From: a virus
Lineage: Duplodnaviria > Caudoviricetes
DNA: 64,000 nucleotides
Strand: one strand, 5' to 3'
Virus record (IMG/VR): IMGVR_UViG_2930578203_000001
Location: 1 to 64,000 of that record
The position numbers were made by a program, and so were the translations under genes. Within the stretch, counting starts at the first letter, position 1, and the number at the start of each line of letters is the position of its first letter. The notes beneath the pieces were generated by a model, which had not been told where the DNA came from, made no database searches, and was given only the letters and a program-made list of their open reading frames with translations. Shown piece by piece: positions 40,774 to 64,000 of the stretch.

Positions 40774-42777
40774 GTGTTCCGACCTGTAGATGCGCACGAT
40801 CACGTCACCTCGCCCGTCGAGAAGGTCCCCTCGGGGAGCCGTGCTCGCCAGGCCCTGGGCACCGTGTGCCGCCTGTGCGGCCGCCTCCGTTACGAGTTGA
40901 TCCCGGCCGCGGCCACCGCCAGCATGACGTGTCTGGGCTGGCTGCACCACGCCGTCGGCGTCGGCCCGGAGGGCTGGGGCGGCTACGGCCTGGGCCTCGC
41001 AGCCGCCGGCGCCCTGACGTACGGCGGACTCAAGTTCAAAAACGCGCCCGCCGCATCCCTCGGCGTCGCCTCCACCGGCGCCCTCGTGAACACCGCGGTC
41101 GGCGCGATGACCGGCCCGTCCGTCCCGTCGCTCATCGCGGGCGGGGTCGTCACGATCGCCTCGTACGGCGTCTACGTCCCGTGGCTCATCAAGACCCGCC
41201 ACGAGCGGATCGCCCTGCAGATCAAGGCCGCCAAGACCGCCCCTCTGCCCGACGGAATGGGCGTCAACGTCACCCAGGCCGGCGTAACCGGCGACAGCGT
41301 CGAGGAGACCGCCCTGCGGCGTGCTCTGGTTGCCCTCGGCGTCCCCGCTCAGGACGTCTCCCGCATCGTGTTCACCGACACCGGATGGCACGCCGCGGTG
41401 ACGCTCCCGCCCGGCAAGAACACCTCCGCCGAGACTGTCATCGCCAAGCAGACCCAGCTCGAGGCGAACCTCGACCTCCCCGGGAAGCTGCGCCTGGCCG
41501 TCGGCGCACAGGCCAACCAGCTCATCGTCCGCATGCAGACGAACGACCCGCTCGCCGAGACGATCGCGTGGCCGGGCCCCGCCATTACCTCGGTGGAGCA
41601 CGCGCTGCCCATCGGCATCTACCCGGACGGTTCGCAGGTCTTCATCGACCTCGTCGCCGGGCACGTCCTGATCGCGGGCGGCACGGACATGGGCAAGTCC
41701 GGCGTCATCAACTGCGTGATCGGCAACCTCGTTGCGTGCGAGGACGCCGAGATCCTAGGCATCGATATGAAGCCCGGTGCGCTCGAGCTGGGCCCGTGGC
41801 GCCGCAACATGCTTGCCCTGGCCGACGACGCCGACGGCGCCCGCCAGGTCCTCACCATGGTCAAGGCGGAGATGATCCGCCGCGGCAAGTACCTTGCGAC
41901 CCTCCGGGGCCCGAAGGGTGAGCCGGTCCGGAAGTGGACGAGCGAGCACGGCCCGTACTGGATTCTGGTCGTCGACGAGCTTGCCGAACTCCTGCGCCAG
42001 GCCCCGGACGTGGCCTCGGAGCTGGTCACGATCAACCAGGTGGCCCGCGCCATGGGTATCCGCGTGATCGCGGCCACGCAGTCCCCCAGCGAGCAGGCGT
42101 TTGGCGGCAAGGGCACGGACGCCCGGCAGCAGTACAGCACCCGCATCGGGCTGCCCGTGTTCGAGACCGAGCCCATCAACATGATCTTCGGCCGGGGCGC
42201 GTACGGCCGCGGATGGCGGCTCGACTGGCTCGACCTGCCCGGCAAGGTCATGGTCTCGTCCCGGCGCTACGCAGACCCTCGTGAGGGCCGCTGCTACTAC
42301 GTGACGGACCGCGACATCGTCGTCGTCTCCACGGAGCACGCCCGGCACGAGGACGAGGAGCCCGCCGAGCCCGCGTGGCCGCACCCCCAGCACGAGCCGG
42401 ACCCCGACCCTGAGCCGCCGACTCCGCCACCCGGCAGTGGCGGTGGGGGCCCGCGCGGCGGCCGGCCTCACCTCCGGCCCGTGCCGACCTTCCCGGACGG
42501 CTCCCGCATCCCCGACAACCGCATTGCGCTGTGGGAGGCCCTGCAGAAGGCAGGCCCCGACGGTGTGACGAAGCCCGAACTGGTCGCCGACGACATCGTC
42601 GGACACGGCTCCAGCGCCACCCAGCCGCTCACTCAGTGGACCAAGAAGGGATGGCTGGACGACTCCGGCAAGCGCGGCCAGGCCAAGGTCTGGCGCTTGG
42701 TCGCCGTAGCCCACACACCGCGCCCCGAAGTGACCAGCACCGACGAGGAGAACTCCGCATGTCCCGCAAGCCTGTAG
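40774..42777 (+). CDS. traB: FtsK/SpoIIIE-family conjugal DNA translocase (TraB-like)
   Basis: N-terminal TM helices, Walker A GGTDMGKS, IDMKPG, Walker B VVDE, ATQ motif, C-terminal wHTH. Confidence 0.85.
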   Translation: MFRPVDAHDHVTSPVEKVPSGSRARQALGTVCRLCGRLRYELIPAAATASMTCLGWLHHAVGVGPEGWGGYGLGLAAAGALTYGGLKFKNAPAASLGVASTGALVNTAVGAMTGPSVPSLIAGGVVTIASYGVYVPWLIKTRHERIALQIKAAKTAPLPDGMGVNVTQAGVTGDSVEETALRRALVALGVPAQDVSRIVFTDTGWHAAVTLPPGKNTSAETVIAKQTQLEANLDLPGKLRLAVGAQANQLIVRMQTNDPLAETIAWPGPAITSVEHALPIGIYPDGSQVFIDLVAGHVLIAGGTDMGKSGVINCVIGNLVACEDAEILGIDMKPGALELGPWRRNMLALADDADGARQVLTMVKAEMIRRGKYLATLRGPKGEPVRKWTSEHGPYWILVVDELAELLRQAPDVASELVTINQVARAMGIRVIAATQSPSEQAFGGKGTDARQQYSTRIGLPVFETEPINMIFGRGAYGRGWRLDWLDLPGKVMVSSRRYADPREGRCYYVTDRDIVVVSTEHARHEDEEPAEPAWPHPQHEPDPDPEPPTPPPGSGGGGPRGGRPHLRPVPTFPDGSRIPDNRIALWEALQKAGPDGVTKPELVADDIVGHGSSATQPLTQWTKKGWLDDSGKRGQAKVWRLVAVAHTPRPEVTSTDEENSACPASL

Positions 42778-56078: not shown

Positions 56079-56432
56079 GTGACTACTCAGCGAACCTCCT
56101 GGGCGCTCGCGCGTGAAGCCGCCGGCCTGTTCCTCACCGCGTTCGGCCTGCTCGGCGTCCTCGTGGCGTTGGGCGCACTCCACTGGGCCGCCGGACTCTC
56201 CACCGCGATGGCCGGCCTCCTCGCCACGGGCCTGCTCATGCGCCCGAAGCCGACCGCGGCACCCTGGGCGCACCTTGCCCGTGCCGCCGTCTGCATCCTC
56301 GGCTACGGCGGTCTCACCGGCTGCGCGTTCGCCCTCTGCACCCCCCTGGGCTGGATCGGCGTCTCCCTGGCGGTCGTGCTCCTCGGCCTGTGGCTCACCA
56401 CCCGTGAGCACGAGGACGAGGGGGCCCGCTGA
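56079..56432 (+). CDS. 4-TM membrane protein
   Basis: Hydrophobic; TGATG-coupled to the portal gene. Confidence 0.7.
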   Translation: MTTQRTSWALAREAAGLFLTAFGLLGVLVALGALHWAAGLSTAMAGLLATGLLMRPKPTAAPWAHLARAAVCILGYGGLTGCAFALCTPLGWIGVSLAVVLLGLWLTTREHEDEGAR

Positions 56433-58891
56433 TGCCCCGCCAGTTCCTCCCCACGCTCCGGGGACTCCTCGTTCCGCGCTCCCCTGCTCCCCCACCCGCG
56501 CCAACCGCTGAGACCAAGGACCTGCTCGCGGGCAACGCCTACGTGTCGATGACGTACGCCGGCGTCACCAACGTGTGGGGCACGCCCGGCCGCGCGGACG
56601 GCTGGGACATGGAACGCGTCATCGTCGAGGGCTACGAACGCTCCATCTGGACCTTCAAGTCCATCGAGGCGATCAGTAAGCACGCCAGCACCCTCCCGAT
56701 CCAGATCGGCCGGGGCGGAGACGAACGGCGCTTCGAGGAGACCCTCGACGACCACCCACTGTTGAAGCTGCTCAACAAGAAGGCCAATCCGCTCGAGACC
56801 GGCGATGTCTTCAAGAAACGGCTGAGCGCACAGCTCCTTCTGTCGAAGAAGGGCGTCTTCATCGAGAAGACCTACAGCCGCGGCGGCAACCTCGTACGCC
56901 TCGACCTGCTTCCCCCTGACCGCGTCCAGATCATCCCGGACGACCGCAACGCCGACTACGTGAAGCACTTCGAGTTCACGGACTACAGCGGCCACGTCCG
57001 GGAACTGCTGCCCAAGCACGTCATCTGGATTCGCGACCCCCACCCTCTCGACCCCTTCTGCGGCGTCACCCCGCTTGAAGCGGCGGGCCTGTCCATCGAC
57101 CTGGACGTCAAGGCCCGCACCTACAACATCAGCTTTATTGACAATGACGGCAGACCGGGCGGAATCGTCGGTATCGACCTGGACGGAGTCGACCAGCGCG
57201 AAGTCGACCGCATCCAGAAGCGACTGGCGCCCGGCGCGCACAACGCTGGCCAGCTCACCCTCGTCGGCACCGGGCCCGGCGGAGTCACCTACGTCGACAC
57301 CTCCGCCCGCCCTCGCGAGATGGCCTACGAGACGCTGTCCGGCACCTCCAAGGGCGAGATCCTGGCCGCGTTCGGTGTCCCCGAAAGCATCGTCGGCAAC
57401 GCCTCCGAGCGGACCTACGCGAACGCTGACCGCGAGGAATACAACTTCTGGGACCACACGGAGCTGCCCCACCTCAACCTGATCGCCTCCGGGTTCGACC
57501 CGGACCTCGATGACGAGTGGATCGTCCGCTTCGACACCTCCAGTGTTCAGGCGTTGGAGTTCCCCCGCCGCCAGGCCCGCGAGGAAGCCCGCAAGGAGTG
57601 GGAAGCCGGCCTCATCACGATCGACGAGTACCGGGAGATCGCGGGTCGACCGGCATTCAACGTCCCACAGTCCCGGGCCCTTTGGATCTCTCCGCAGAAG
57701 GCCCCCGTACCCGCCAACGACCAGGACGCCGCCGCACTGGGCCTCGGTCCCGACCCGGCCGCGGGCGGAACACCCGGAGCCGCGCCCACCGGTGCCCCGC
57801 TCCCGCCGGGCACCGCTCCGGATACCGCGGCCGCCGACGTCGCCGCCGCCCGCGCTCTGGACGCTGGCCCGAGCGCCGCCGCGGATGTCGCCGCAGCGCG
57901 GGCGCAGGGCACGCCCCTCGCCCTGCCTGCCGGTTCGACGGCTACCGACGCCGTCGCCGCGGCCCGCGCCGCCACTACCGACAGCGGCCCCGGTGACGCG
58001 GCCGCCGACGTCGACCGCGCCCGCAGCACCCAGGACGCTGCACTCCCCGGCGACGACGCCGAGGACGTCGACGCCGCACGCGCCGCGGTCGAGACCAAGG
58101 CCCTGCCCGAGGACGACGGATACGAGGTCACTGACGACGACTTCGACGCTCTGTCCATGGCCGTGTCCGCGGCCGTCACCGCGCTCCTCGCACGCCAGGA
58201 AGGCGTCATACTCGCCCGGCTCCGCGCCCCGAAGATCCGCAAGTACACGAGGTACTGGGAGCCCGAGAACGACGACGACGTCCGGCACGTCGACGCCGAT
58301 CTCGACCAGGACCGTGTGGTCAGCGCCGCCCGCTGGGCCGAGGAGACCAGCCAATCCCTGACCCCGATCCTTCAGCAGGCGGCCATCGCCACGGCACGCA
58401 AGGTCGGCCAGGCCCTCACCGGCACGGACGAGGTCCCGCCGTCCGCGGCCGCGGCCGCCATCGTCACCGCGGCGTACGCCGGCGAGGCCATCACCGGATT
58501 CCTCACCGAACTCGCCACCGTCCTCCGCGACGCCCAGCACGACGCCGCTGATGTCGGCGACTTGGCGCACGCCGTCGTCAGGTACTACCACTCCGCAGAG
58601 CCTGTTCTGATCGCCCGCGTCGCCGAGACGTGCGCCGTGGCGACCATCAACGGCGCAGCGGACGCCGCGGCAGAGCACGCCGGTCCGCACGTCGTCCGGA
58701 CCTGGGTCACCCGCGCAGACAACCGAGTACGGCCCGCGCACAAGGCCCTCCAGGACAAGACGCTGCCGGTCGGCACCCCGTACACCATCGACGGCGCCAG
58801 CCTCCGCTACCCCGGCGACCCCTTCGCCCCGATCGCCCTCACGATCAACTGCCGCTGTCGCCTGCACTACGCCACCGACTCGAAGGAGTGA
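56432..58891 (+). CDS. phage portal protein fused to a MuF/gpF-like head morphogenesis domain
   Basis: HPLLKLL..NP, G.TPL.A, ILAAFGVP, ITIDEYR portal motifs; C-terminal WVT..D.RVR..H, PGDP, INCRC. Confidence 0.9.
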   Translation: MPRQFLPTLRGLLVPRSPAPPPAPTAETKDLLAGNAYVSMTYAGVTNVWGTPGRADGWDMERVIVEGYERSIWTFKSIEAISKHASTLPIQIGRGGDERRFEETLDDHPLLKLLNKKANPLETGDVFKKRLSAQLLLSKKGVFIEKTYSRGGNLVRLDLLPPDRVQIIPDDRNADYVKHFEFTDYSGHVRELLPKHVIWIRDPHPLDPFCGVTPLEAAGLSIDLDVKARTYNISFIDNDGRPGGIVGIDLDGVDQREVDRIQKRLAPGAHNAGQLTLVGTGPGGVTYVDTSARPREMAYETLSGTSKGEILAAFGVPESIVGNASERTYANADREEYNFWDHTELPHLNLIASGFDPDLDDEWIVRFDTSSVQALEFPRRQAREEARKEWEAGLITIDEYREIAGRPAFNVPQSRALWISPQKAPVPANDQDAAALGLGPDPAAGGTPGAAPTGAPLPPGTAPDTAAADVAAARALDAGPSAAADVAAARAQGTPLALPAGSTATDAVAAARAATTDSGPGDAAADVDRARSTQDAALPGDDAEDVDAARAAVETKALPEDDGYEVTDDDFDALSMAVSAAVTALLARQEGVILARLRAPKIRKYTRYWEPENDDDVRHVDADLDQDRVVSAARWAEETSQSLTPILQQAAIATARKVGQALTGTDEVPPSAAAAAIVTAAYAGEAITGFLTELATVLRDAQHDAADVGDLAHAVVRYYHSAEPVLIARVAETCAVATINGAADAAAEHAGPHVVRTWVTRADNRVRPAHKALQDKTLPVGTPYTIDGASLRYPGDPFAPIALTINCRCRLHYATDSKE

Positions 58892-59895: not shown

Positions 59896-59995
59896 AGCGA
59901 GCGACGCTACGCCCCGCGGGAGCAGCACGGCAGCCGAATATGGCCAGGTCGCCGGGGCGCGACGCTAACCACCTGTGCTGTGCATGGTCCGCGCC

Positions 59996-62900
59996 ATGCT
60001 GAATCGCCCCAATGCACAGGCTGAGTCGCAGGACCTGAGTCGCGACCTCGAGGTCAAGGTCACGCGTCGGCCGTGGAACCCTGCTCTGCACCCCCGGGAC
60101 AGCAAGGGCCGCTTCATCGAGACCGGCGGGGTGGTGAGGACCTGGGGCGGCAAGCTCGCGCGCGTCATCCGCGCGCTCCCGCACGACCGCATCCTCGTCC
60201 AGGACCAGACCGGCCCGGACGAGTTCCGCGGCCGCAGGCACACCACCAGTGCCAAGTGGGTCAGCATGGTCGCGCGCCCCGACGGCAGCGCGCCCACCGA
60301 CGACGAAGAGAAGGTCGCCGAAGAGGACGAGCGGCGCACCCAGGACCCGCGCCGCGGCAACGGCGTTGCCCGCGACGACGACGGCGACCCCAACACCCCG
60401 AACGACCCGCACGACCAGGACGACAAGGGCCGCCCGATCGGCGAGGACGACGGCGACGGCCCGGACGACGATGACGACCAGGACGAGCCCGAGGACGGCG
60501 CCCACCCGGTCAACGTCGATGCCCTGCCGAACCAGCAGCACGCCGCCGGGGCCCGGTACGCCGATACCGCCGCCGTCCGCCGCCACTTCATGCAGGTTGC
60601 GGCCCAGCCCGGCACGAGCACGGACATGGCCACCTTCCTGCGCTCGGTGGCACACGACGACGACCTGCGGACCACCTCGTCCGGCCGACTCGTCATCCTC
60701 CTCGACGACCGGCCCGAGCACGCTGGCCGCTGGAACCTCACTGCAACCGGCTCCGGACAGCGCGTCGACGCCGCCGGCACCTTCGCCACCGCCGAGGACA
60801 CCGCCCGATTCGCCGAACACCTCGACAAGACCGCCGTGAACGGTCAGCTCACCAAGTTTCAGCAGCCGTTCGACTTCTCCGACCCGCAACTGGACCGGGA
60901 GGCCCGCGACTGGCGCTCCACCAGGGGCGAGAACATCCAGGGCGCTATCCAGCGGGCCCGTAAGGAGTTCGACGGCACGGACACCGCCCCGGCCTCCCCG
61001 AAGCCCGCACAGGCCCCCTCCGCCGCTGCCGCGGACGGACGGCGCTTCACCACCCTGCAGGACGTCCGCGCGCACTGGACTGACATGCGTACCCGCCTGA
61101 GCCAGGGCGGCCCCGAGACGCAGAACGCCGTGCGGATTCTGGACACCCTGATCAACGACGACCGGCTCAAGCTCGTAGGCCGTGGGCAGCTCGTCACGCG
61201 ACGAGACGAAAACGGCGACTGGCTCCTCGTCGCCACCGGCAGCGGCTACACCCTGCGCGGGCAGACCCTGCACCCCCGCTTCGAGTCGCAGGAAGAGGCA
61301 CAGCGCTTCGGCCGCTTCCTCGTCGCCTCCGGCATCAAGGGCGAGAACGGCGAGCCGCTGGACATGTCCCGCGGTGCCATCAGCCGGTGGCGCTCCGAGG
61401 ACAACCAGTCCTTCAGCGAGGTCGTCGACGAGGCTCTCGCCAAGTGGCAGAGGGAGCGCGGCGGAGACGCCCCGGCCGGACAGAACGCACCAGCGCCGGA
61501 CGCGCCGCAGGCCCATGACGAGACCGGCGCCCCTGCGCAGCCGGAGGCGGAACCCGCACCGGCCCCGGCCGTCCCCGAGGGTGCTAAACCCGTCGACGGG
61601 GTCGACGGCTACCACTACGTCAACGACGGCGGATCAATCACCCTGTATGGCCCCGACGGACAGGTCGCCGCGACCAGCGAGCGCGGCTACCCGCCGAAGG
61701 CCAAGATCGACGGCGTCACCGTGCCCGTCCCTCAGTACCCGAAGCAGGGCGCCGCGGTGATGGCCCGGCTGCACCGCGGCGCCCAGAACCCGGACCAGCG
61801 CGACCGGATCACCGCGGCGTGGGTGATGAAGCCCGGCAAGGACGGCAAGCCCGCCAAGCGGGTCATGGTCTTCCGCGGCACCATCAAGGGCGACGAGCGG
61901 GACTACGACGCCGTGGGCTCCACCCGCGCCATCAAGTGGGCCCCGTCCCTGCGGGCGTACTCGACCCAGTCGAACATGACCGAGGCCACGCGGGACGAGC
62001 GGATCTCCGAGGTCCTGTCCAAACTCGCCCGCCAGGGCCGCAACATCCACGTCACCGACGAGACCGCCGCGGGCAGCCCCGATGCACCGGCCAACGCCGT
62101 CGACGAGACCGAGGCCCTGCGCAAGGCCATCGCCAACGCGGACGACCCTCGCCTGTCGCAGTTGAAGTACGAGCGGTGGGCATCGCTCAACCGCACCCGC
62201 TCTGAGGCCAACCGCAAGCGTCTGAACTCTGAGATCGCAATGATCGACGACGAGTTGAAGCGCCGCCGAATCGAGCGGGACGAGGCCGCCGCCCGGGACG
62301 TCTCCTCGCTCAGCGACGACGACATCGCCAACCGCATCCGCGAGTCACAGGAGGAGCGCGGTACATACGGTGCCCGCAAGGGCCAGGACGCCAACGACGT
62401 CGAGCGGGCCATCTACAGCGAGCGCCGCCGCCGCTCGCAGGCCCTCGTCGACGACGACACCGACCTGACCACGGCCGCCGAGGACGACCTGGCCAAGGCC
62501 CGCGAGACCATCGCCGAACGCGTCCGCATGCACCAGGCCGCCGGCGACGACCCCGAGGCCGAGCGCACCATGCGCCAGGCCCTGCAGAACCGGCACGACG
62601 CCATCGTGGGCGAGCAGCAGAGCCGCCATGCCCAGAAGATCGCCGATCGGCCGCCGGTCGCCGACCTCACCGACGAGGAACTGTCGCAGGAGTACAACGA
62701 CTTGCTCCGGCGCGACTTCCGGAAGGCCCCTCCGGAGGCGCAGCAGGTCCTCGAGGGCCGCATGGAGGACGTCAAGCGGGAGCGCCGCGACCGGGAAAAG
62801 CGGGCCATCACCGACCGCGATGCCCCCGAGAACCTGAGCGATGAGGACCTGAAGGCGGAGTACACCGAGCTTCGCCGCACGCGCTCCTCGTACACCGGGA

Positions 62901-64000
62901 CCGACGACGTCAAGGCGGCCCGCAAGGAACGCATGGCCGCGCTGGAGGCCGAGCAGAACCGCCGCAGCTCCACGCCGGAGGTCGAGCAGCTCGTCGCCCG
63001 CGTCGACAACCCCGACGACAACGGCATGATCAGCATCGGCGGCGGCAGCGATTACGGCTACGTCGACTACCGGGACCAGACGCACGGGCACACGACCCGC
63101 GAGATCGGGTGGACCTGGGGCAAGCACAGTTGGGGGCACGCAGACACCGCCTATCCCTCCCGCGCCGCAGCTCTGGCAGCGATGGTCCAGGCGTACGACA
63201 ACGACCCCGACACCCGAGGTGAGCGCACCTGGGGCCGTAAGCGCCCCGTGTTCGTGCCGAAGATGTTCGTCGAGCTCTACCAGAACGAGCGTCTTCGCGA
63301 CCGGCTCGCCGGCGCCAGCGAGGAACGGCAGTACCTCTACAGCCTGTTCCGGGACCGGTACGGCTGGGACGACGGCGTGAACCCCCTGGTGCCCAGCAAC
63401 AAAAAGGGCCACCACATCAAGGGCCGGAAGCTGTGGGTGCCCGAAGGCCTCCTCGCCGAACTGAACCGGGTGACGGAGGAGCTGTCCCGGGACATGTCCG
63501 TGCGGGCCGCGGACCGGGACGCGGACAGTTCCGACCGCCAGAAGGCCAAGACCCGGCTCGCGTCCATCAACGTGGCTCTGCACGGCATTGAGGCGCAGCG
63601 CGAGTCAGTCCGCAAGAATGGCGGGGACGACGACCGAAAGGTCATCTCCCGCGAGGAGATCGAGGCACAGCAGGCCGCACTCCGTGCAGCGCTGGGAGGC
63701 GACGATGACGAACATGTTCAGTCCGATGGTCCGGGATCACTGGCGGACGTACCGGCCCAAGGAGTGGGCGGCGATGACCGATCCGGAGGCGTTCGTCGAG
63801 ACGAAGGCCAGGGAGATCGAGACTCAGATTCTCAAGGCCGAGGAGGCGCTGGAGAAGACCGTTCCGGAGCCGACGGAGTACGAGGAGCAGGTCGGCCGGC
63901 ACAAGCAGATCAGGGCGGACGCAACAGCGATGGTCCTGGCGGATCTTCTGCCGGAGCCGGAGCCCGAGGCGGAGAAGGCGCCGGAGCAGACGCCGATGGA
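59996..64000 (+). CDS. giant phage protein, 5' part only (runs off the window)
   Basis: Frame read by eye over long stretches with no stop found and strong GC3; N-terminal WNPALHPRDSKGRF motif; probably absent from the ORF track because it has no stop in the window. Confidence 0.85.
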   Translation, partial: MLNRPNAQAESQDLSRDLEVKVTRRPWNPALHPRDSKGRFIETGGVVRTWGGKLARVIRALPHDRILVQDQTGPDEFRGRRHTTSAKWVSMVARPDGSAPTDDEEKVAEEDERRTQDPRRGNGVARDDDGDPNTPNDPHDQDDKGRPIGEDDGDGPDDDDDQDEPEDGAHPVNVDALPNQQHAAGARYADTAAVRRHFMQVAAQPGTSTDMATFLRSVAHDDDLRTTSSGRLVILLDDRPEHAGRWNLTATGSGQRVDAAGTFATAEDTARFAEHLDKTAVNGQLTKFQQPFDFSDPQLDREARDWRSTRGENIQGAIQRARKEFDGTDTAPASPKPAQAPSAAAADGRRFTTLQDVRAHWTDMRTRLSQGGPETQNAVRILDTLINDDRLKLVGRGQLVTRRDENGDWLLVATGSGYTLRGQTLHPRFESQEEAQRFGRFLVASGIKGENGEPLDMSRGAISRWRSEDNQSFSEVVDEALAKWQRERGGDAPAGQNAPAPDAPQAHDETGAPAQPEAEPAPAPAVPEGAKPVDGVDGYHYVNDGGSITLYGPDGQVAATSERGYPPKAKIDGVTVPVPQYPKQGAAVMARLHRGAQNPDQRDRITAAWVMKPGKDGKPAKRVMVFRGTIKGDERDYDAVGSTRAIKWAPSLRAYSTQSNMTEATRDERISEVLSKLARQGRNIHVTDETAAGSPDAPANAVDETEALRKAIANADDPRLSQLKYERWASLNRTRSEANRKRLNSEIAMIDDELKRRRIERDEAAARDVSSLSDDDIANRIRESQEERGTYGARKGQDANDVERAIYSERRRRSQALVDDDTDLTTAAEDDLAKARETIAERVRMHQAAGDDPEAERTMRQALQNRHDAIVGEQQSRHAQKIADRPPVADLTDEELSQEYNDLLRRDFRKAPPEAQQVLEGRMEDVKRERRDREKRAITDRDAPENLSDEDLKAEYTELRRTRSSYTGTDDVKAARKERMAALEAEQNRRSSTPEVEQLVARVDNPDDNGMISIGGGSDYGYVDYRDQTHGHTTREIGWTWGKHSWGHADTAYPSRAAALAAMVQAYDNDPDTRGERTWGRKRPVFVPKMFVELYQNERLRDRLAGASEERQYLYSLFRDRYGWDDGVNPLVPSNKKGHHIKGRKLWVPEGLLAELNRVTEELSRDMSVRAADRDADSSDRQKAKTRLASINVALHGIEAQRESVRKNGGDDDRKVISREEIEAQQAALRAALGGDDDEHVQSDGPGSLADVPAQGVGGDDRSGGVRRDEGQGDRDSDSQGRGGAGEDRSGADGVRGAGRPAQADQGGRNSDGPGGSSAGAGARGGEGAGADADG
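63705..64000 (+). CDS. TnpV-like protein nested in the +1 frame of the giant ORF (partial)
   Basis: GGAGG RBS; MTNMFSPMVRDHWRTYRPKEW...VGRHKQIRADATAMVLADLL; GC3 bias moves to this frame. Confidence 0.7.
   Translation, partial: MTNMFSPMVRDHWRTYRPKEWAAMTDPEAFVETKAREIETQILKAEEALEKTVPEPTEYEEQVGRHKQIRADATAMVLADLLPEPEPEAEKAPEQTPM

Follow-up and report, generated by a model that had tools for sequence, protein, structure and literature searches.

Here we describe a segment of viral DNA, positions 63705-64043, that very probably (we put it at about 0.82) codes for protein in two frames at once, with a small TnpV-like gene, here called gene B, nested inside a giant gene for a DarB-like protein, both of them protein-coding. 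The window, which is the whole stretch of DNA analysed, comprises the first 64,000 nucleotides of a 121-kb IMG/VR record of the Caudoviricetes. Bacteria and their mobile elements rarely have long, fully nested genes on the same strand with selection acting on each of the two frames, and the textbook nested cases, Rz1 and comS, are short. In the present case, a gene of 90-185 codons, assigned to the TnpV family through its relatives, lies within the spacer of a very large protein and has been kept over several orders of Actinomycetota. The arrangement of an embedded pair, with conservation of both frames and with a small coding sequence lying out of frame and wholly inside a larger gene, was found in 52 of 52 related loci.

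Results

The giant gene and its setting

The giant open reading frame runs on the plus strand from 59975 to 77035 of the record and comprises 5,686 codons, of which the 5' part, 59975..64000, lies inside the window. Searches against PHROG and Pfam identify its product as a DarB-like polyvalent methylase-helicase protein. Residues 1345-2900 match PHROG 10089 ('DarB-like antirestriction') with an E-value of 1.2e-268 and 896 bits, the match extending from residue 1366 to residue 2863, and the Pfam domains SNF2-rel_dom, ResIII, Helicase_C, Eco57I, and N6_Mtase are present, so that the protein has both the fusion of an N6-adenine methylase with an SF2/SNF2 helicase and the profile match that mark the DarB-like family. 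Ahead of this core lies an N-terminal module, module A (59975..63703, plus strand; ~1,243 residues), whose coding signature in the giant frame is normal, GC at the third codon position being 0.88-0.96 up to ~63600. Over its first ~300 residues, module A shares 35% identity with the N-terminus encoded by the giant CDS on plasmid NZ_CP070374.1, and against Pfam the module gave only a weak match to DUF6158. The gene sits in the head-assembly block of the element: the portal protein gene (56432..58891, plus strand; phrog_2662, E 5e-81) is directly 5' of it, and on the other side, downstream of the window, are the genes for the head protease (78287-80206), the major head protein (80372-81721), and the tape measure (90889-94935). 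FtsK/SpoIIIE-like genes are also found on the element. Because the giant gene sits between portal and protease, module A probably has a role in capsid targeting, and the single point that speaks for packaging of the giant protein is this same position.

A probable nested gene with its own signals and codon signature

Gene B occupies 63705-64043 on the plus strand (63705..64000 of it in the window), in the +1 frame relative to the giant gene, and its 112 codons end at a TAG at 64041-64043. Its translation reads MTNMFSPMVRDHWRTYRPKEW..., and the product would be an acidic helical protein of ~13 kDa with a pI of 4.6. A Shine-Dalgarno (SD)-like GGGAGG, which the giant frame reads as Gly-Gly, is found on the plus strand at 63694..63699, 5 nt before the ATG of B at 63705; the GGAGG ribosomal binding site that a first-pass annotation had noticed ahead of the +1 frame is indeed there, its core at 63695-63699. 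On either side of B, the GC content at giant-frame codon positions 1/2/3 is ~0.7/0.45/0.93, and within 63751-64050 it becomes 0.92/0.71/0.38. Read in the +1 frame, this same segment gives 0.71/0.38/0.92, the normal signature of high-GC coding DNA, just as the normal codon bias claimed earlier for that frame would have it. When the whole 17-kb ORF was scanned with a 120-nt sliding window, the codon signature departed from the giant frame in exactly one segment, 63605-64115. The giant ORF contains dozens of alternative-frame ORFs of at least 70 codons, and B alone among them carries the coding signature; because those dozens exist without it, an open alternative frame is commonplace in the giant ORF and a frame switch in codon bias is not.

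Across B, the giant frame reads ...AALGGDDDEHVQSDGPGSLADVPAQGVGG... and is without a stop codon. The resulting spacer (63704..~64045, plus strand) has 113 residues of low complexity, among them 31 Gly, 18 Asp, 16 Ala, and 12 Arg, and leads from module A to RFRP..., the N-terminal motif of the methylase. The first-pass description of the giant frame from 63705 as an open, low-complexity sequence of G, D, R, and S holds up, with Ala as a further component, and both frames are open to base 64000 as it had stated. Beyond the window, B ends at its TAG and the giant frame at 77035. The earlier annotation had allowed that the giant frame might stop shortly after the window with no downstream domains, as in a simple overlap from a lost stop; instead, it continues for ~4,330 more codons through the DarB-like methylase-helicase module. 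Genuine coding in the giant frame sets in again a few bases 3' of the stop of B.

Conservation of the layout

The frame that lies -1 to B is open across all of B in 52/52 related loci, made up of 8/8 Streptomyces plasmid-type loci (the window included), 11/11 plasmids of other Actinomycetota (from Amycolatopsis, Pseudarthrobacter, Micromonospora, Arthrobacter, Paenarthrobacter, Kocuria, Sinomonas, Microbacterium, Leifsonia, Pseudonocardia, and Thermobifida), 21/21 Streptomyces genome loci, and 12/12 IMG/VR loci. The loci were collected by similarity to B or to the adjoining DNA, so the conservation of B itself is partly by construction, a bias that does not bear on the openness of the other frame. 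Many of these loci are closely related, and the genome and IMG/VR samples, which consist of Streptomyces-type relatives only, may share an origin; the number of independent lineages is ~9. The start codon of B is ATG in all eight Streptomyces plasmid-type loci, six of which have GGAGG, GGGAGG, or GGAAGG 5-9 nt before it, and an SD-like word occurs at -17 to -4 of B in 16 of the 21 Streptomyces genome loci. The length of B varies from 90 to 185 codons among relatives. The gene, its ATG, and its stop are maintained across lineages whose B proteins are <50% identical, in at least five orders of Actinomycetota. The single frame switch in codon bias is also seen in 7/7 further homologues on Streptomyces plasmids, where the annotation in every case has a single giant CDS.

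In the 11 non-Streptomyces plasmids, which are usually annotated with two separate genes, the methylase-helicase frame begins 55-196 nt 5' of B, and several of them encode, upstream of B and in the methylase frame, a short peptide containing (D/E)GQLS(F/L/I). There, B has on one side this short conserved peptide, with which the methylase-helicase protein begins, and on the other the methylase domain. The giant frame is broken outside B in three of these 11 loci (L016, L019, and L020) and in two of the 21 genome loci (L030 and L039), and on one plasmid (L003) an IS5 cuts the downstream gene but leaves B in place; an intact host gene is therefore not required for B to persist. Searching GenBank phages by tblastn with B and its Pseudarthrobacter homologue returned zero matches. 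An in-frame fused form of B was not found, in that 0 of 272 longer homologue candidates scored, which speaks only weakly against the existence of such a form.

Chance and selection

Given the B protein and the local codon usage, the probability that the giant frame would be open by chance ranges from 0.002 to 0.62 per locus and is 0.15-0.21 at the window locus; its product over 9 representatives that are <50% identical to one another is 2e-6. The pattern of substitutions follows the frame switch. In the flanks, variability is highest at giant-frame codon position 3, with 0.84-0.91 changes per site, and in the overlap it is highest at giant position 1, which is position 3 of B. This peak and the values at the other two positions are 0.51, 0.28, and 0.27 in one clade, 0.40, 0.29, and 0.29 in another, and 0.45, 0.17, and 0.07 in the Arthrobacter type, where the lowest rate, 0.07 per site, falls on the second codon position of B. 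The silent sites of B are about half as variable as those of the flanks. A comparison of dN/dS in both frames, which the first-pass annotation had proposed as a check, gave 0.27-0.69 in the frame of B and 0.96-4.3 in the giant frame, the nested frame having the lower value in 7/7 pairs. Taken by themselves, the values of 0.27-0.69 are moderately low only.

The B protein family and its link to TnpV

A profile built from B and 9 close relatives retrieved 388 representative clusters at E<=1e-3, mostly of 75-280 residues and matched from residue 1. When the query and its best 149 hits were compared with Pfam, 46 of these 150 family members matched PF14198 (TnpV) at E<=0.01, the best of them at 2.3e-8, and any other Pfam family was matched by at most 2. 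The peptide of the window has no Pfam match: it neither matches TnpV at E<=1 nor reaches the 27-bit gathering cut-off of PF14198, and the hmmscan against TnpV that had been proposed for the nested peptide is negative. Its homologues come closer. The best one compared directly, L011, scores 21.9 bits (E 1.8e-4), below that cut-off, and sub-threshold colinear matches to TnpV (E 1.8e-4 to 0.15) are found in 5/6 homologues and extend over almost the entire 111-position profile, from position 24 to position 110. PGAP gives the name 'TnpV protein' to 16 of 57 plasmid homologues, and the ESM Atlas neighbours of B carry the name 'TnpV protein family'. The size and setting are also those of a TnpV-type protein, which has ~100-130 residues and belongs to a mobile element; B has 112 residues, and its homologues are on plasmids. 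Membership of B in TnpV is, as far as these profiles indicate, transitive only, through its relatives, so the resemblance proposed in the first-pass annotation holds indirectly, by way of the family, and fails for the window peptide. NCBIfam gave no meaningful match for B or 4 homologues, and PHROGs gave no match for B.

The AlphaFold2 model of B has a pLDDT of 94.4 and a pTM of 0.73, with five helices. Foldseek searches with this model returned nothing at E<=1e-3 against the PDB, a search of BFVD likewise found nothing at E<=1e-3, and the best hit of a wide VIA-align fold search, with a Z of 6.0, does not rise above what helical bundles give as noise. We also considered B as a lambda-Xis-like excisionase, and the predicted all-helical structure lends this no support. 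Together, the 388 clusters, the confident predicted fold, and the TnpV matches among relatives indicate that B represents a real protein family.

Discussion

The 52/52 conservation of the layout, the phase of the substitutions, the lower dN/dS of the nested frame, and the confidently predicted fold all support the proposal of the first-pass annotation that B is a true overlapping gene. In this model, ribosomes coming from the 5' end of the giant gene would read on through the overlap and produce a Gly/Asp/Ala/Arg-rich spacer, presumably disordered, that forms the connection between module A and the methylase-helicase core. B would be an independent small gene of the TnpV superfamily, on which ribosomes would initiate internally at its own GGAGG-ATG and terminate at the TAG, a few bases ahead of RFRP, the N-terminal motif of the methylase. 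The sequence constraint would lie on B; the giant frame would need only to remain open and to be acceptable as a linker.

Programmed recoding offers a different account of the same frames, in which a +1 shift into B near 63700 yields an A-B fusion with its end at the TAG of B, and/or a shift back at the TAG yields a B-methylase-helicase isoform. SD-like elements stimulate +1 shifting in prfB, and an SD-like GGAGG does stand just 5' of the frame switch; moreover, TAG is the stop of B in 49/52 loci, compared with 7 of the 52 strong ORFs in the record, and is always a few bases ahead of the methylase motif. However, the codons preceding that stop vary by lineage (GCG, CTG, CGG, GTG, ATT, CTC, and GAG), and positions 63690-63710 hold no zero-frame stop, obvious pause codon, or repeat-type heptamer, so the combination of a conserved slippery sequence and a pause element that characterizes a frameshift site was not found. 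No shift is needed for the giant frame to be open, B has its own conserved SD, ATG, and stop and begins with a conserved Met, and its relatives elsewhere are free-standing small proteins, matched from residue 1. The frameshift product that the first-pass annotation had entertained is for these reasons disfavoured, and we consider it very unlikely. We give slightly less credence still to three ordinary genes (A, B, and methylase-helicase), with a giant frame that is open over B by chance and a core that starts downstream of it. Such an opening can arise because the -1 frame of high-GC genes has few stops; the single-locus probability of 0.15-0.21 at the window is not small, and PGAP places the start of the methylase-helicase gene after B in several plasmids (L010-L013, L015, and L017). 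Module A, however, has no stop codon, and therefore its ribosomes must read on. At the window locus the interval from the stop of B to the RFRP...ANL motif contains no in-frame ATG, GTG, or TTG, and in L011-L013 this conserved motif is upstream of the start chosen by PGAP. Chance openness also fits poorly with 52/52 open loci and the product of 2e-6 over the diverged representatives, with the short methylase-frame peptide found repeatedly 5' of B among the 11 plasmids, in several of them, and with the reduced synonymous variability of B.

Gene B might also be a relic, a once free-standing gene that was engulfed by a gene fusion and is now untranslated, its signature and open frame not yet decayed. 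The lack of a direct family match for the window peptide would suit this, but the nested frame, ATG, and stop have been kept over lineages <50% identical in B and from at least five orders, substitutions are rarest at the second codon position of B (Arthrobacter type), and the confident AlphaFold model rests on covariation within the family; a relic is accordingly highly improbable. As for an artefact, with compensating frameshift errors or recent mutations within an in-frame giant domain, a well-formed peptide out of frame could give that first impression, but the out-of-frame layout with its own start and stop is found in 52/52 records from different assemblies, and on this conservation we reject a sequencing error or compensated frameshift, whose probability is negligible.

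Returning to the nested pair, the relative frame is shared by the plasmids of other Actinomycetota, and on that comparison the layout is ancient. We infer that the methylase-helicase gene was probably extended N-terminally across a pre-existing upstream tnpV-like gene, an extension that the stop-poor -1 frame of high-GC DNA would have allowed. As to function, the odds are roughly even that B acts as an acidic helical chaperone or adaptor partner of the giant protein in packaging or transfer. It is a more tentative and rather doubtful idea that the nesting itself is functional, with B as an obligate cis-acting partner of the DarB-like protein (chaperone, packaging/transfer adaptor, or methylase gatekeeper) that is made from the same mRNA where the spacer emerges, and with the TAG as part of the control point. 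A TAG just before the methylase domain would then avoid an NTG start in the giant frame, or permit a low-level recoded B-methylase isoform. If this were true, anti-restriction would become a role for the TnpV family, for which no function has been demonstrated since it was known from Tn4451. More generally, the physical tie between TnpV and DarB-type anti-restriction proteins provides a concrete hypothesis for both, and the locus is a natural system for studying how high-GC genomes extend genes across their neighbours through stop-poor frames. It also exposes an inconsistency among annotation pipelines: some call one giant CDS and miss B, while others call B but start the methylase-helicase gene short of its true 5' end, so that the conserved N-terminal peptide is lost.

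Comparison with known systems

In Bacillus subtilis, comS lies out of frame inside srfA. By analogy, B and the giant gene would form a similar pair, a small functional gene out of frame in a giant multi-domain gene on the same transcript; comS, however, has 46 codons and is a lineage-specific regulator, whereas B has 90-185 residues and belongs to a widespread family that is also free-standing. TnpV of Tn4451 (PF14198) is, like B, a small protein of ~110 residues from mobile elements, but the B peptide is below the Pfam threshold and is predicted to be an all-helical bundle. To our knowledge, TnpV has no demonstrated function, and we know of no methylase-helicase host gene in the context of Tn4451.

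The lambda spanin genes Rz and Rz1 are a closer parallel in layout, Rz1 being entirely embedded in the +1 frame of Rz according to PMC5295617. Both pairs have a whole small gene within a larger one on the same strand, in the +1 frame and in a phage-type element; in both, the embedded gene overlies a linker, a region where the host protein can absorb changes; and in both, related elements have been annotated with the genes embedded and with the genes separated. The differences are that the host here is a 5,686-codon polyvalent anti-restriction gene with an embedded gene of 112 codons (90-185 in relatives), that the layout is widespread in plasmids and phage-like elements of high-GC Actinomycetota, and that the B/giant pair is known from sequence, its products not being known to interact.

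The giant gene itself resembles darB of phage P1 and its relatives. DarB-like polyvalent proteins are described by Iyer et al. 2017 (PMC5512222) as having a methylase-SF2 helicase dyad after an N-terminal domain called LPD36, and the giant protein has the same dyad preceded by an N-terminal domain; the RFRP... region would, by our own equation, correspond to LPD36. Phage JC1 gp69, which is DarB-like, is found in virions according to the gp69 passages of PMC9144972. As in other DarB-like systems, the giant gene lies in a head-assembly block and adjoins the portal gene. The main text of Iyer et al. 2017 (PMC5512222) does not contain the words TnpV, overlapping, or frameshift, and the gp69 passages of PMC9144972 mention no nested gene; in searches of the openly accessible literature, we found no description of a TnpV-like gene nested in a DarB-like gene. 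Compared with the known DarB-like proteins, the new element here is the embedded gene.

Results

A coding signature switch inside the giant gene

The giant gene, which encodes a DarB-like methylase-helicase, runs on the plus strand from 59975 to 77035 of the record (5,686 codons) and extends past the window end. Inside it, on the same strand but in the +1 frame, lies B (63705-64043), a nested TnpV-like gene of 112 codons that reads MTNMFSPMVRDHWRTYRPKEW... from its ATG at 63705 and ends at a TAG (64041-64043); a GGAGG Shine-Dalgarno (SD) sequence (63695-63699) stands 5 nt before the ATG. Read in the giant frame, the same DNA gives a spacer of 113 residues, among them 31 Gly, 18 Asp, 16 Ala and 12 Arg. 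In both flanks the GC content of the giant frame at codon positions 1, 2 and 3 is about 0.7, 0.45 and 0.93, whereas in 63751-64050 it is 0.92, 0.71 and 0.38, the values of normal coding sequence read in the +1 frame. A sliding scan along the full length of the 17-kb ORF found the signature departing from the giant frame in one segment alone (63605-64115), and none of the dozens of other alternative-frame ORFs of at least 70 codons in the giant ORF carried it. The first-pass annotation had described a well-formed +1 frame with normal codon bias behind an SD sequence; the GGAGG, the ATG and the GC pattern bear this out, and the case for a real coding frame rests on a switch unique in the giant ORF, beyond the mere openness of an alternative frame.

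Once both frames were followed past the window, as that annotation had proposed, B ended at its TAG and the giant frame went on to 77035; the early stop without downstream domains that it had named as grounds for doubt is absent, since the DarB-like core follows the overlap. Immediately downstream of the stop of B, the giant frame continues as RFRPNPADAPKG...ANVEAIRVLKKLEAENRPAT...WSGWG and then the methylase. Residues 1345-2900 of the giant protein match PHROG 10089 'DarB-like antirestriction' (E 1.2e-268) as well as the Pfam families SNF2-rel_dom, ResIII, Helicase_C and Eco57I, and an overlapping piece matches N6_Mtase. A methylase-helicase dyad of this kind is described by Iyer et al. (PMC5512222), who report a fused domain at its N-terminus and name it LPD36, and we infer that the RFRP... 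region of the giant protein is this domain. No in-frame ATG, GTG or TTG occurs between the nested stop and the conserved region at the window locus, so the core is reachable solely by reading through the spacer.

The layout in relatives

A blastn search of plasmids with 1.8 kb around the site returned 66 records, from which seven Streptomyces plasmids, each with one giant CDS, were examined (CP108533.1, NZ_OX371413.1, NZ_CP107912.1, NZ_CP109251.1, NZ_CP109351.1, NZ_CP115940.1 and NZ_CP070374.1). All seven have a single signature switch right before the methylase motif, a giant frame without a stop, and a +1 ORF, 90-114 codons long, that begins with ATG; counting the window, six of eight loci have a GGAGG-like word 5-9 nt before that ATG. 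Common to all the nested genes are the motif R-x-H-W-x-x-[FY]-R-P...D-P-E and a TAG stop, and nested proteins with as little as 37% identity to the B of the window are still encoded in the +1 frame, with a giant-frame piece on either side. A decayed copy in NZ_CP109265.1 (L003 4001-5588) keeps B as an annotated free-standing CDS of 117 residues; of the upstream module only some 40 codons are left, and an IS5 transposase cuts the methylase gene about 300 nt downstream.

In plasmids of Amycolatopsis, Pseudarthrobacter and Micromonospora, B is annotated as its own CDS immediately before a 'helicase' gene; in their DNA, the helicase frame is open across the entire B, from a start codon lying 55-196 nt upstream. 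With eight further genera added from a tblastn search of 57 records, this frame was open through B in 11 of 11 non-Streptomyces plasmids, whose nested genes have 93-185 codons. Among the 57 tblastn rows, 16 are named 'TnpV protein' and five fall under a CDS named helicase. In these plasmids a conserved RF(R/V/L/I)P...ANL motif is located after the stop of B and before the helicase start called by the annotation pipeline PGAP, and in several of them the first residues of the helicase frame form a short peptide in which basic residues precede (D/E)GQLS(F/L/I) (L011 3278-3353, L013 2425-2500, L014 1129-1204, L012 3296-3398), which opens as MAGRKKQ(I/V)DGQLSF(D/E)ALW in L011, L013 and L014. Because the PGAP gene start lies downstream of B, this opening peptide, possibly a signal for transfer or targeting, is missing from the annotation; the older pTC2 annotation (CP000476.1) already called the long ORF from upstream of B.

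Species-representative genomes scanned with an alignment of close B relatives added 21 loci, all in Streptomyces. In every one of these the giant frame runs across B, and in 19 it is open over the full +/-3 kb, the other two (L030 and L039) being broken outside the overlap; the IMG/VR loci were open throughout (12 of 12). Across all sets together, every one of the 52 loci keeps the nested layout; many of these loci are closely related, and the IMG/VR loci may have sources in common with the genome loci.

Chance and selection

To gauge openness by chance, the nested protein was held fixed and synonymous codons were redrawn from local usage. The giant frame stayed open with P of 0.002-0.62 per locus (0.15-0.21 for the window), and the product over nine representatives with nested proteins less than 50% identical to one another was 2e-6.

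Variability was compared in four alignments, with 14, 13, 4 and 3 distinct sequences. In the flanks it was highest at codon position 3 of the giant frame (0.84-0.91 minimum changes per site in two large Streptomyces clades), and in the overlap it was highest, in all four alignments, at giant-frame position 1 (third position of B): 0.51 versus 0.28 and 0.27 at the other two positions, 0.40 versus 0.29 and 0.29, 0.28 versus 0.20 and 0.22, and 0.45 versus 0.17 and 0.07. In the Arthrobacter-type set, the second codon position of B was the most conserved. Pairwise dN/dS, the check proposed at first pass, was lower in the nested frame (0.27-0.69) than in the giant frame (0.96-4.3) in seven of seven pairs. 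Substitution phase and dN/dS together thus place protein-level constraint on the frame of B, and the giant frame across the overlap is constrained mainly to remain open. Silent sites of B are about half as variable as those of the flanks, as would be expected if the other frame imposed a second constraint.

The stop of B (64041-64043 of the record and the homologous sites in L002-L055), always a few bases upstream of the methylase motif, is TAG at 49 of 52 loci, TGA at two and TAA at one; the 52 strong ORFs of the record end in TGA 41 times, TAG seven times and TAA four times. One possible reason for the preference is that a TGA stop would create NTG in the giant frame, immediately ahead of the methylase domain, where it could serve as a start codon.

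The small protein

A large protein collection contains 10 protein calls of 105-112 residues that are close relatives of B. At E<=1e-3, the profile built from them matched 388 representative clusters, of which nearly all are small proteins and matched from residue 1. Taking the query with its best 149 profile matches, 46 of the 150 match Pfam TnpV at E<=0.01 (best E 2.3e-8), and no other family was matched by more than two. The resemblance to TnpV noted at first pass therefore holds only indirectly, through these relatives and through ESM Atlas neighbours that carry the name 'TnpV protein family', but the window's own peptide gave no Pfam TnpV match, and five of six homologues matched below threshold. 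AlphaFold2 with the family alignment predicts five helices (pLDDT 94.4, pTM 0.73); the model bore no convincing resemblance to solved or viral predicted structures. B is acidic (pI 4.6) with a mass of 13 kDa. For the TnpV of Tn4451, an Xis-like role has only been postulated (PMC3158075).

Genomic setting

The record (121,298 bp, GC 68%), whose bases 1-64000 form the window, is classed by IMG/VR as a provirus, with a CheckV completeness estimate of 93%. The giant gene lies between the portal gene (56432-58891) and the genes for head protease and major head protein (record 78287-81721) and tape measure (record 90889-94935); the slot between portal and head genes is the usual site for a capsid-carried polyvalent protein. 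Its N-terminus (window 59975-60300) has the motif HPRDSKGRF, also found at the N-terminus of the giant CDS of NZ_CP070374.1, which is likewise placed after a portal gene; the motif may be a capsid-targeting element. The head-tail block is joined with an FtsK/SpoIIIE-like gene (window 40774-42777) of the type used by Streptomyces conjugative plasmids, and the closest relative in the plasmid collection, CP108533.1, is a 129.7-kb circular plasmid with 85% identity over the tested 1.8 kb. The record looks more like a phage-plasmid-type element than a classical integrated prophage. A 257-residue ORF at window 51725-52498 matches the PHROG transposase family phrog_4716 (E 5e-15), possibly marking an insertion sequence inside the element.

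Discussion

At the level of sequence, the comparison establishes two conserved frames, of which B has its own SD, ATG and stop and the core has no separate start. A programmed frameshift product, as suggested at first pass, would make recoding rather than separate initiation the source of B; this is disfavoured, since there is no conserved slippery site and B has signals of its own. An account by three ordinary genes, namely module A (the N-terminal part of the giant gene, 59975-63703), B and the methylase-helicase, fails because module A has no stop and the core no start. Artefact is ruled out by the conservation of the layout.

In the reading we prefer, the giant protein would be translated straight through, with the overlap serving as a flexible spacer, and B would be produced by internal initiation. 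The arrangement may have arisen when the 5' end of a methylase-helicase gene was extended over an upstream tnpV-like gene, probably by way of the stop-poor -1 frame of high-GC DNA, and the 1,243-residue N-terminal module of the Streptomyces phage-like elements would then have been gained later. A partnership of B with the giant protein is conjecture, with odds near even.

Our search, outside whose reach lay supplements and subscription journals, found no literature on a TnpV-like gene nested in DarB-like genes. Same-strand embedding as such is familiar from comS in srfA. It is documented as well for Rz1 in Rz (PMC5295617). Beside these, the present layout is notable for how long and how old the overlap is, and for the systematic mis-annotation that results from it.
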